The notes under the pieces are model-generated. The model was not told where the DNA came from. It saw only the letters and a list, made by a program, of their open reading frames with translations, and did no database searches. Source: an uncultured Lachnospiraceae bacterium (GTDB taxonomy: Bacteria > Bacillota > Clostridia > Lachnospirales > Lachnospiraceae). Taken from it: 64,000 nt of DNA. The translations under genes were made by a program, and so were the position numbers. Below, in pieces: positions 22,561-23,240 of the stretch; the first letter of the stretch is position 1, and each line of letters starts with the position of its first letter. The stretch lies in contig CAZMIX010000004.1 in NCBI GenBank assembly GCA_964566545.1, forward strand, positions 44,257 through 108,256, in the 5' to 3' direction.

Positions 22561-22861
22561 CAAATAAAAAACGGCAATACGGCAATATAAAACAGTTCAA
22601 TCAGCCCAATAGCAATAAGTTTACGGCACCGCGGGAAAAATTTTGCTTTGCAATCCTTGACGCGGTTCATCCCCTTATGATGATGAAAGGGGGTTGTCGG
22701 GAACGGTTTTCACCGACAACCCTTGGAAGCAGCTTTTTTATATGCTTTAAAGCTTCTCAGAATCCCCATATCCAGTCAAAAGGTAGTGGTTTGAGGGGGA
22801 ATACCGTTCATGGGTCAAAATCAGCCGATTTATTCGTTAAAGTAGTTCGACTTTCGCGAAT

Positions 22862-23240
22862 GTCGTTAGGAGCAGTCCGGTGGACTGTCCGTCGACCGAC
22901 TAAGCAAATTGATAAAAAATCGTTTCCCGCAAGTCGTGCGCGACGACAGTTAAAAGGGATTTTTTATCGGTTTGCTGTAGAGTTTCCGCCGTAGGGGGAT
23001 TCATTCCGCCGTAGGCGTTTGGAAACTATTTGCGAAAGTCCAACTTTAACGGTCGGTAGACCTTGAATAAATTGGCGTTTGGTTAGCCTGTTTCTTTCGC
23101 CTTTGACAAGGAAGCTCGCTTTTTTTCGCTATGCCTGTCGAGTATGAGGGGATTCGGGGTTCCCTATACGAGACAGGATAAGCGGAAAAACCGGAACGGT
23201 TCCTCTGAAAGCCGGAGAGTGGCGCCCGTGTCAAGGACTT
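22862..23240. ncRNA. Unique core B: hairpin-dense candidate structured RNA (strand unresolved)
   Basis: No credible ORF. Nested helices at 22869-22890, 22911-22968 and 23134-23177. Long-range complementary pairs are 22835-22863 with 23026-23052, and 23058-23066 with 23231-23239. Confidence 0.35.

Follow-up and report, generated by a model that had tools for sequence, protein, structure and literature searches.

Locus architecture and three related sites

The locus described here lies in a 64,000-nt stretch (hereafter, the window) of contig CAZMIX010000004.1 from an uncultured Lachnospiraceae bacterium, where a non-coding gap of 1.5 kb (22299–23814) separates a ttcA-like gene from the gene of an AI-2E transporter, with the gene of an Xer-family tyrosine recombinase on the other side of ttcA. 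The gap carries 1.55 copies (one full, one truncated) of an 892-bp unit, together with three related two-arm sites, S1, S2 and S3 (Table 1). The unit is best read as a protein-less IMEX, an integrative mobile element that exploits Xer, and perhaps as an inovirus satellite. More specifically, we consider it likely that a gene-free IMEX of 892 bp is inserted in tandem at a dif-like site and possesses a folded attachment site (attP) of the type known from phage CTXphi.

The three sites had been recognized in the initial annotation (S1 at 22835–22863, S2 at 23026–23052, S3 at 23727–23751), and their sequences and coordinates proved exactly as described. Their resemblance is far above chance, as the motif CGTTAAAGT-N7-CTTTCGCGAAT occurs in the 64-kb window at S1 only and gave 0 matches in 100 shuffles, and arm searches of the window returned S1, S2 and S3 as its only full two-arm sites. 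It also holds that S1 and S3, repeated in direct orientation at a distance of 892 bp, close the right ends of two units, A1 and A2, and span exactly one repeat unit, and that S1 and S2 enclose 162 nt. The inverted pairing of S1 with S2 was borne out (9 bp followed by 12 bp, with one G.T in the 12-bp part, around an internal loop of 6 nt versus 3 nt); pairing continues outward for 11 bp (CCGATTTATTC with GAATAAATTGG), past a small bulged hairpin on the S2 side. The sites differ in the length of the centre between AAAG and CTTT, which is 8 nt in S1, 5 nt in S2, and 4 nt in all chromosomal sites. The left arm of S3 is derived from the element, its centre and right arm from the host. S3 agrees with the sites of the closest relatives in its arms and its TTGT centre.

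Table 1. Coordinates of the element, its sites and the flanking genes in the window
Feature	Coordinates	Strand	Remarks
Full element copy, 892 bp	22844..23735	+	boundaries ambiguous within 17-nt identity 22827-22843 / 23719-23735
A1, older left-truncated element copy	22350..22843	+	retains right-hand 494 nt of the 892-bp unit, by alignment with A2
A2	23241-23735	+	right end is S3
S1, junction, attP1-like	22827..22862	+	dif left arm, over-long centre, right arm: GATTTATTCGTTAAAGT AGTTCGA CTTTCGCGAATG
Three-hairpin domain enclosed by S1:S2, 162 nt	22864..23025	+	predicted single-stranded DNA fold; homologous to contig L075
S2, inverted attP2-like partner	23026..23075	+	centre +1 nt relative to dif; bulged mini-hairpin interrupts outer arm in duplex DNA
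S3, regenerated dif-like site	23720..23753	.	34 bp: ATTTATTCGTTAAAG TTGT CTTTCGCGAATAGAT
Variable patch, roughly 35 nt	A1 22400..22431, A2 23291-23325	+	directly after motif AATAGCAATAAGTT
GC hairpin GGGGGCGGCGCCCCC, then CTTGACAATAGCAATAAGTT	23254..23268, also 22363-22377	+	second variable patch relative to locus L001
Xer-family tyrosine recombinase, 352 aa, XerS-like	20431..21489	-	Pfam Phage_integrase, 1e-34
ttcA-like PP-loop gene	21570..22298	-	Pfam PF01171; landmark flanking the site
AI-2E transporter gene	23815-25146	-

Empty and occupied sites in relatives

Syntenic loci of relatives (designated below by L numbers) were retrieved via homologs of the window TtcA protein. In Lachnospiraceae relatives the gene order reads cytidylate-kinase-like, AI-2E transporter, in some cases dtd, ttcA, tyrosine recombinase, glyoxalase and lexA, and is conserved where TtcA is 83–92% identical. 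The ttcA-proximal gap of these relatives measures ~150–220 nt and contains a perfectly conserved palindrome, ATCTATTCGTTAAAG TTGT CTTTCGCGAATAGAT, between flanks that cannot be aligned. This site is empty in L002, L003, L004, L006, L076 and L078, and occupied in L001, where an 892-bp insertion lies within it, bounded by S1 and S3. Towards ttcA the junction is S1, in which AGTTCGACTTTCGCGAATG succeeds the left arm of the host; the far junction is S3, an intact site. L002 and L003 encode a TtcA protein identical to that of L001; the L002 site is empty by sequence, and L003 has the same short gap of 218 nt. The polymorphism observed between strains is the presence or absence of the 892-bp insertion, with no inversion. 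The S1 junction recurs in L001 and in L082, a second sample of the window's species. That the element is inserted into a recombinase site can thus be regarded as practically certain, and the comparison of junctions shows that insertion creates, towards ttcA, a hybrid site whose centre is too long (S1) and regenerates an intact one (S3) on the other side.

The copies of the element in the window and in L001 are 97.9% identical, most differences falling in the GC hairpin 23254–23268 and the 35 nt following AATAGCAATAAGTT, whereas host housekeeping genes are 83–85% identical and the flanking spacers are unalignable, as expected of a horizontally moving unit and not of a decaying relic. This bears on the notion that the unit is an inert remnant, the immobile decayed end of a once complete inovirus prophage, which would fit its inovirus-like attP module (see below) and the fact that one of the window copies is visibly decaying by deletion. 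However, two species share this 892-bp unit, down to its ends, at an identity (~98%) well above that of the host genes, and independent decay would not yield identical boundaries; the unit is also present or absent within a single species (L001 versus L002 and L003). We therefore regard an inert remnant as highly improbable.

Two side observations concern the surroundings of the site. In L002 (960–1000) the outer left arm of the empty site, ATTTATTC, equals the arm of the element, while ATCTATTC stands there in other relatives; the arm of the element may have been acquired in the species of L001 and L002, or the L002 site may bear the scar of a past insertion. In several close relatives a dtd gene (D-Tyr-tRNA deacylase) lies between the AI-2E transporter gene and the site (L001 2154–2603, L004 4390–4848); it is absent at that place from the window (23754–23814) and from L006.

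A tandem array and its history

Units A1 and A2 are 100% identical over ~410 nt downstream of the variable patch (22434–22843 and 23326–23735), as well as over ~50 nt upstream of it. The patch itself is distinct in A1, A2 and L001, the remainder being ~99% identical. L082 shares 99.4% nucleotide identity with the window over 938 nt, and its host flank reads ...ATGTCGAAT|CTATTCGTTAAAGTAGTTCG (also written ...ATGTCGAAT|CTATTCGTTAAAGTAGTTCGACTTTCGCGAA), an intact left-hand junction (attL). At the corresponding flank the window reads ...ATGTCGAAT|TTTTCCTGTGG, A1 being joined to the host at a GAAT microhomology (22350–22353). The intact attL of L082, set against this flank, argues that the window formerly held two complete tandem copies. 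The array thus records two successive insertions, the older of which is truncated, having lost S1 and its left 400 nt through deletion between two GAAT microhomologies. Since the attL arm in L082 is of host type (ATCTATTC) and the S3 arm in the window of element type (ATTTATTC), the crossover can be placed in the stretch from arm position 3 to the site's centre.

The target as a dif-like site and its recombinase

A scan of 185,579 species-representative genomes for TTCGTTAAAGT-NNN-CTTTCGCGAATA returned 48 sites, nearly all one per genome, from Lachnospiraceae and a few Oscillospiraceae or unclassified Bacillota. The arms of these sites are invariant and the 4-nt centre is variable (TTGT in 24, TATT in 8, TAGA in 6, and others). 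In the window, genes left of ~20.4 kb lie on the plus strand and those right of it on the minus strand, and the GC skew switches sign there; cumulative G-C reaches its maximum at 20334, 3.4 kb from S3, with a plateau extending to 23.9 kb, which puts the site at the replication terminus. A full-length recombinase homolog (48–94% identity) is located 0.1–2.1 kb from the site in all 23 of the loci containing one. In Oscillospiraceae its gene lies 111 nt from the site with no ttcA between them, and elsewhere ttcA usually intervenes. A dif beside the gene of its own recombinase is the hallmark of the single recombinases XerS and XerH (PMC5357621). On account of its position, uniqueness, architecture, linkage to a recombinase, and use by integrase-less elements, we assign the 34-bp palindrome with considerable confidence as the dif of these bacteria.

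The recombinase finds its best NCBIfam match in XerS, over the full length and at 1e-55, with a score of 188.9 bits that does not reach the equivalog cut-off of 267; the nearest solved structures are XerD, XerA, XerC-like and XerH. It is syntenic with ttcA and the site in relatives, and dozens of species that do not carry the element keep it beside the site. The proposal that S1, S2 and S3 are sites of a tyrosine recombinase is upheld, and the product of 20431–21489 is the likely enzyme. By sequence, the site lies apart from known ones: Bacillus, E. coli and difSL motifs were not found in the window at <=8 mismatches, and the best local alignment to difSL (31 bp, 11-bp centre) gave 16 matched bases with two gaps, which does not constitute a match. 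Another open reading frame (ORF) of 352 aa (3557–4615), considered as a second copy of the recombinase, was identified as nitronate monooxygenase.

It was this nearby gene, ~1.3 kb away, together with the inverted arrangement of S2 and S3 and the direct arrangement of S1 and S3, that had led to the proposal of an inverton, in which the recombinase would flip S2–S3 or delete S1–S3 and so switch a promoter. The proposal does not survive the comparison with relatives, in which the recombinase emerges as a conserved, syntenic housekeeping gene of Xer type: over about 23 loci devoid of the element, recombinase and single site are conserved together, with no dedicated invertase, and the variation observed is that of an insertion versus an empty site. 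Both readable assembled instances (the full copy in the window and L001) have the same orientation, while L082 ends inside S1. Furthermore, the centres of S1, S2 and S3 are unequal in length and sequence, which normally blocks exchange by tyrosine recombinases. The flanking ttcA and AI-2E transporter genes point away from the segment or end at it, and no plus-strand promoter was confirmed inside S2–S3; the 'strong A2 promoter' of the initial annotation is a TTGACA that lacks a -10 box at 16–18 nt and is absent from the promoter scan list. A phase switch at this locus is accordingly most improbable.

Further features accompany the site in other genomes. In several Lachnospiraceae, three to four tandem repeats of 40–60 nt lie between ttcA and the site (L051 4605–4760, L019 5464–5600, and also L056, L065 and L072), each holding an inverted copy of the site's left half (CAACTTTAACGA...), and these could serve as accessory sites for recombinase binding or be left over from earlier integrations. 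The Lachnospiraceae-type arrangement of ttcA, xer and site (69% and 65% protein identity) also occurs in L011 (JAWZDV010000044.1), which was assigned to a Bacteroides thetaiotaomicron bin, probably in error.

A probable folded attachment site

S1 and S2 close a multibranch fold of single-stranded DNA (ssDNA), with z = -8.8 in silico, in which the S1:S2 duplex corresponds to the two arms of a recombinase site and the central spacer is left unpaired. On the S2 side a 14-nt mini-hairpin splits the outer part of the arm, so that a complete arm duplex forms only once S1 and S2 anneal. S2 is part of the element and is also present in L001. A metagenome scan for sites with a long centre returned a single match, contig L075, in which a module ~70% identical to 22827–23075 shares the 8-nt S1-type and 5-nt S2-type centres, the G.T position, the bulged mini-hairpin and the three inner hairpins. 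Covariation had been suggested as a check on the S1:S2 helix; over the S1–S2 fold, 11 of 80 consensus pairs compensate on both sides between the window and L075, mostly in the inner hairpins. A 67-aa ORF beside the L075 module had no homolog except itself among 5.8 billion proteins. An inovirus prophage at the same chromosomal site (L009, see below) displays the same type of fold and an equivalent partner site. Taken with the known behaviour of CTXphi, these features make a folded ssDNA attP the more probable form of the attachment site.

The precedent for such a structure is CTXphi, whose attP1 and attP2 sites have centres of 12 bp and 5–7 bp, respectively, and lie 90 bp apart; neither is usable as a duplex, and jointly they fold into a mimic of dif (PMC4246890, PMC4439123). 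Integration is irreversible and recreates a functional dif on one side, and tandem copies are typical, being required to regenerate free genomes by rolling-circle replication (PMC4246890, PMC4439123). By analogy, integration of the present element would be catalysed by the adjacent Xer enzyme, which would make it an IMEX. The substrate would be the single-stranded circular DNA of the element, with S1 and the inverted S2 annealing into a dif-like duplex whose arms are paired and whose centre is unpaired; a single exchange of one strand pair would take place at the border of the left arm, and replication would finish the integration. As duplexes, S1, with 4 nt too many in its centre, and S2, with 1 nt too many and an interrupted outer arm, should both be poor substrates, which would account for a stable insertion and for tandem copies at the regenerated site. 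Where a carrier has one copy only, as in L001, a form that is circular and free, or replicating, would carry the junction ...CAGCCGATTTATTCGTTAAAGT|AGTTCGACTTTCGCGAATGTCG.

An IMEX could also integrate as duplex DNA in the manner of VGJphi and TLCphi, a double-stranded circle recombining via S1 as a conventional attP and S2 serving as a decoy, a regulatory Xer-binding site or a relic. Elements with a duplex attP are well known, S1 has two recognizable arms, and the integrated product would be the same as for the single-stranded route. On the other hand, the S1 centre exceeds that of every one of the 48 chromosomal sites by 4 nt and should misplace both cleavage points, the full outer arm on the S2 side forms only on folding, and the design of S2 (+1 centre, G.T position, bulged mini-hairpin) is kept in the otherwise diverged L075 module, the L009 prophage having an equivalent partner site. 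For these reasons we hold the duplex route to be unlikely, though less so than the other alternatives.

The initial annotation had offered, as its first interpretation, that the S1:S2 helix closes a structured non-coding RNA, the repeat units being RNA genes. The long-range helix of a single-stranded nucleic acid is real, whereas an RNA domain fits less well than a folded attachment site of CTXphi type. Highly stable folds, the compensatory changes that distinguish the inner hairpins of the window from those of L075, and a plus-strand mismatch compatible with G.U would all suit an RNA; the compensatory changes, however, equally support folding of single-stranded DNA. The pairing coincides with recombinase-site arms around an unpaired spacer, a pattern predicted by recombinase recognition and not by RNA folding, and the insertion junction itself creates S1. 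In addition, no convincing plus-strand promoter lies upstream and no Rfam family matches even at E = 10 (the whole window gave no match at gathering score, and 22250–23900 only chance-level ones at E up to 10). An RNA gene is therefore improbable.

Gene content and the question of a helper

Read as a circle, the element contains no ORF longer than 105 aa and none with a usable ribosome-binding site or a Pfam or PHROG match (E = 0.1), while both of its strands fold far better than shuffled sequences (z = -7.9 and -6.5). An element without genes must be replicated and transferred in trans, and inoviruses residing at the same site are candidates for this role. The IMG/VR contig L009, identical to part of Hungatella hathewayi WAL-18680 (L050), contains an inovirus prophage at this site beside ttcA, which encodes a major coat protein, a Zot/pI homolog and a Rep_trans replication protein; no integrase match was found in this prophage. 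A second inovirus adjoins the site in L027, with proteins 36–43% identical to those of the L009 inovirus. The Rep_trans family is presumably also that of RstA of CTXphi.

Some details of these prophages deserve mention. That of L009 spans 1988–7774 (~5.8 kb), with a folded attP-like pair at 7627–7657 and 7757–7774, and ~30 nt resembling the host right flank are duplicated at its two ends. In L027 (2420–2660) a dif-like site is centred in an inverted repeat of ~60 nt directly beside the inovirus prophage. According to the literature, RstA is an origin-nicking endonuclease of the HUH type (PMC4439123).

On the more speculative side, a helper filamentous phage with a Rep_trans protein would supply rolling-circle replication and packaging, and the element would be a protein-less satellite or natural miniphage whose three S1:S2 hairpins and remaining sequence serve as origin and packaging signals. 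An inovirus like those residing at this site would be the simplest helper; those examined share no sequence with the element beyond the arms of the site. We place the likelihood of a helper-dependent inovirus satellite close to, but short of, even.

Several results weigh against the interpretation as a whole. The known host instances are the window, L001 and L082 only; blastn of one whole unit gave no match among INPHARED phages or PLSDB plasmids, and exact-pattern scans of IMG/VR with five element-specific motifs gave none, or two chance matches inside coding sequence. A tblastn search of the window with the L009 phage proteins revealed no inovirus genes and no helper, and more generally no helper phage, Rep gene or free circular form of the element was found. 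The interpretation does not account for the 640 nt outside the attP fold, including the two variable patches. Moreover, integration via folded ssDNA and via a duplex attP yields identical products that sequence cannot separate, and it is by inference that we regard the site as a functional dif and the recombinase as acting upon it.

Relation to known systems

The closest parallels are CTXphi and its satellite RS1, with which the element shares a pair of dif-like sites in inverted orientation, of which one has too long a centre and the other a nearly normal one, and which would anneal to a dif mimic with an unpaired centre. Like them, it has no integrase of its own, regenerates an intact dif at one end while the site at the other end is masked, and forms tandem insertions; the related L009 prophage at this site has a Rep_trans protein, as with RstA. 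It differs in its host, a Gram-positive anaerobe with an apparently single XerS-like recombinase and an unrelated 34-bp site in place of XerC/XerD and a 28-bp dif, in the length of its loop (162 nt with three conserved hairpins versus about 90 nt), and in its size, 892 bp with no gene compared with 2.7 kb and four genes for RS1 and 7 kb for CTXphi. No sequence similarity was detected. TLCphi- and VGJphi-type IMEXs are likewise integrase-less elements at dif, and TLCphi is helper-dependent; these, however, use a single duplex attP, integrate reversibly and encode proteins (XafT and a Rep in TLCphi).

With respect to the host machinery, the XerS/difSL and XerH/difH systems resemble that of the window in recombinase length (354–362 aa for XerS/XerH, 352 aa here), in XerS being the best family match, and in a gene-linked site at the terminus with imperfectly palindromic arms. 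The differences lie in the family score (189 vs 267 bits), in a site unrelated to difSL, difH, Bacillus dif or E. coli dif, and in the ttcA gene that here usually separates gene and site. The window module would thus seem to work like a single-recombinase module while not being a difSL member by sequence. In Legionella, integration of the mobile element LME-1 revealed a dif/XerL system (PMC9765430), a similar case of an integrated element exposing a previously unrecognized single-recombinase dif site, although LME-1 is a large gene-carrying episome from another phylum with another site.

Two further comparisons concern the small size of the element. Ff miniphages are gene-free, sub-kilobase, structured ssDNAs that carry only the cis-acting origin and packaging signals of the intergenic region and are propagated by a helper, but they arise in laboratory high-multiplicity passages and do not integrate, whereas the element is natural, occurs in two species and has an integration module, its packaging and replication being hypothetical. 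The pdif modules of Acinetobacter also consist of short DNA segments between inverted Xer-type sites; these are plasmid-borne, carry genes and have XerC/XerD sites of normal spacing, and we know of no proposal of a folding or ssDNA step in their case.

While the CTXphi type of integration is already known, the host phylum, the single-recombinase system with an undescribed site and the gene-free 0.9-kb element are new here. To our knowledge, work on folded single strands that hijack Xer has dealt almost exclusively with Vibrio, and the same folded design appears to operate in gut Firmicutes with a one-recombinase system; if true, integration of folded ssDNA in the CTXphi manner extends beyond Proteobacteria to a one-enzyme Xer system. 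The most far-reaching formulation, which we advance tentatively and at somewhat less than even likelihood, is that filamentous phages of Gram-positive hosts have in the 892-nt unit a natural satellite without proteins, the smallest IMEX so far, consisting of nothing but a folded-ssDNA attP with origin and packaging signals and integrating through an undescribed single-recombinase Xer/dif system common to Lachnospiraceae and Oscillospiraceae.

A gene-free integrative element of 0.9 kb is near the smallest mobile DNA that can be expected, and might provide a simple substrate for the study of catalysis by single Xer recombinases or a base for integration vectors in gut anaerobes that are hard to engineer. 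For Lachnospiraceae and Oscillospiraceae the analysis offers a probable dif and its recombinase, both missing from the review of Xer and the paper on dif prediction that were consulted, and the site could be used as a marker of the terminus in genome assembly and in estimates of replication rate. It also carries a warning for annotation, since tandem 'ncRNA-like' repeats beside a recombinase gene can be IMEX arrays and not invertons.

Other sequence features of the unit

The motif AATAGCAATAAGTT occurs twice per unit (at 22386, 22608, 23277 and 23500 in the window), and ACGGCAAT stands in tandem near its copies (22573–22589), giving an iteron-like look; one of the variable patches is a variant of the ACGGCAC that follows it. 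That the GC hairpin at 23254–23268 is an origin or a Rep-binding element is only a guess. The strings CTACTCT and AATAGC of the variable patch, which we take to resemble the pT181 nick region, have no counterpart in the intergenic regions of L009 and L027 and were given no weight. The occurrence of a variable patch after a conserved 'promoter' had first suggested a guide-RNA-like scaffold (the omega RNA of IscB/TnpB or the bridge RNA of IS110), an idea that was dropped because the empty and occupied sites point to Xer-type insertion and no nuclease or recombinase gene is associated with the unit. The best promoter-like site of each unit lies on the minus strand (TTTACA-18-TATAAT, 11/12; 22560–22476 and 23452–23368 in the window), with a terminator-like hairpin ~30 nt beyond it, and the implied RNA of ~45 nt could be a primer, a small RNA or a product of chance.

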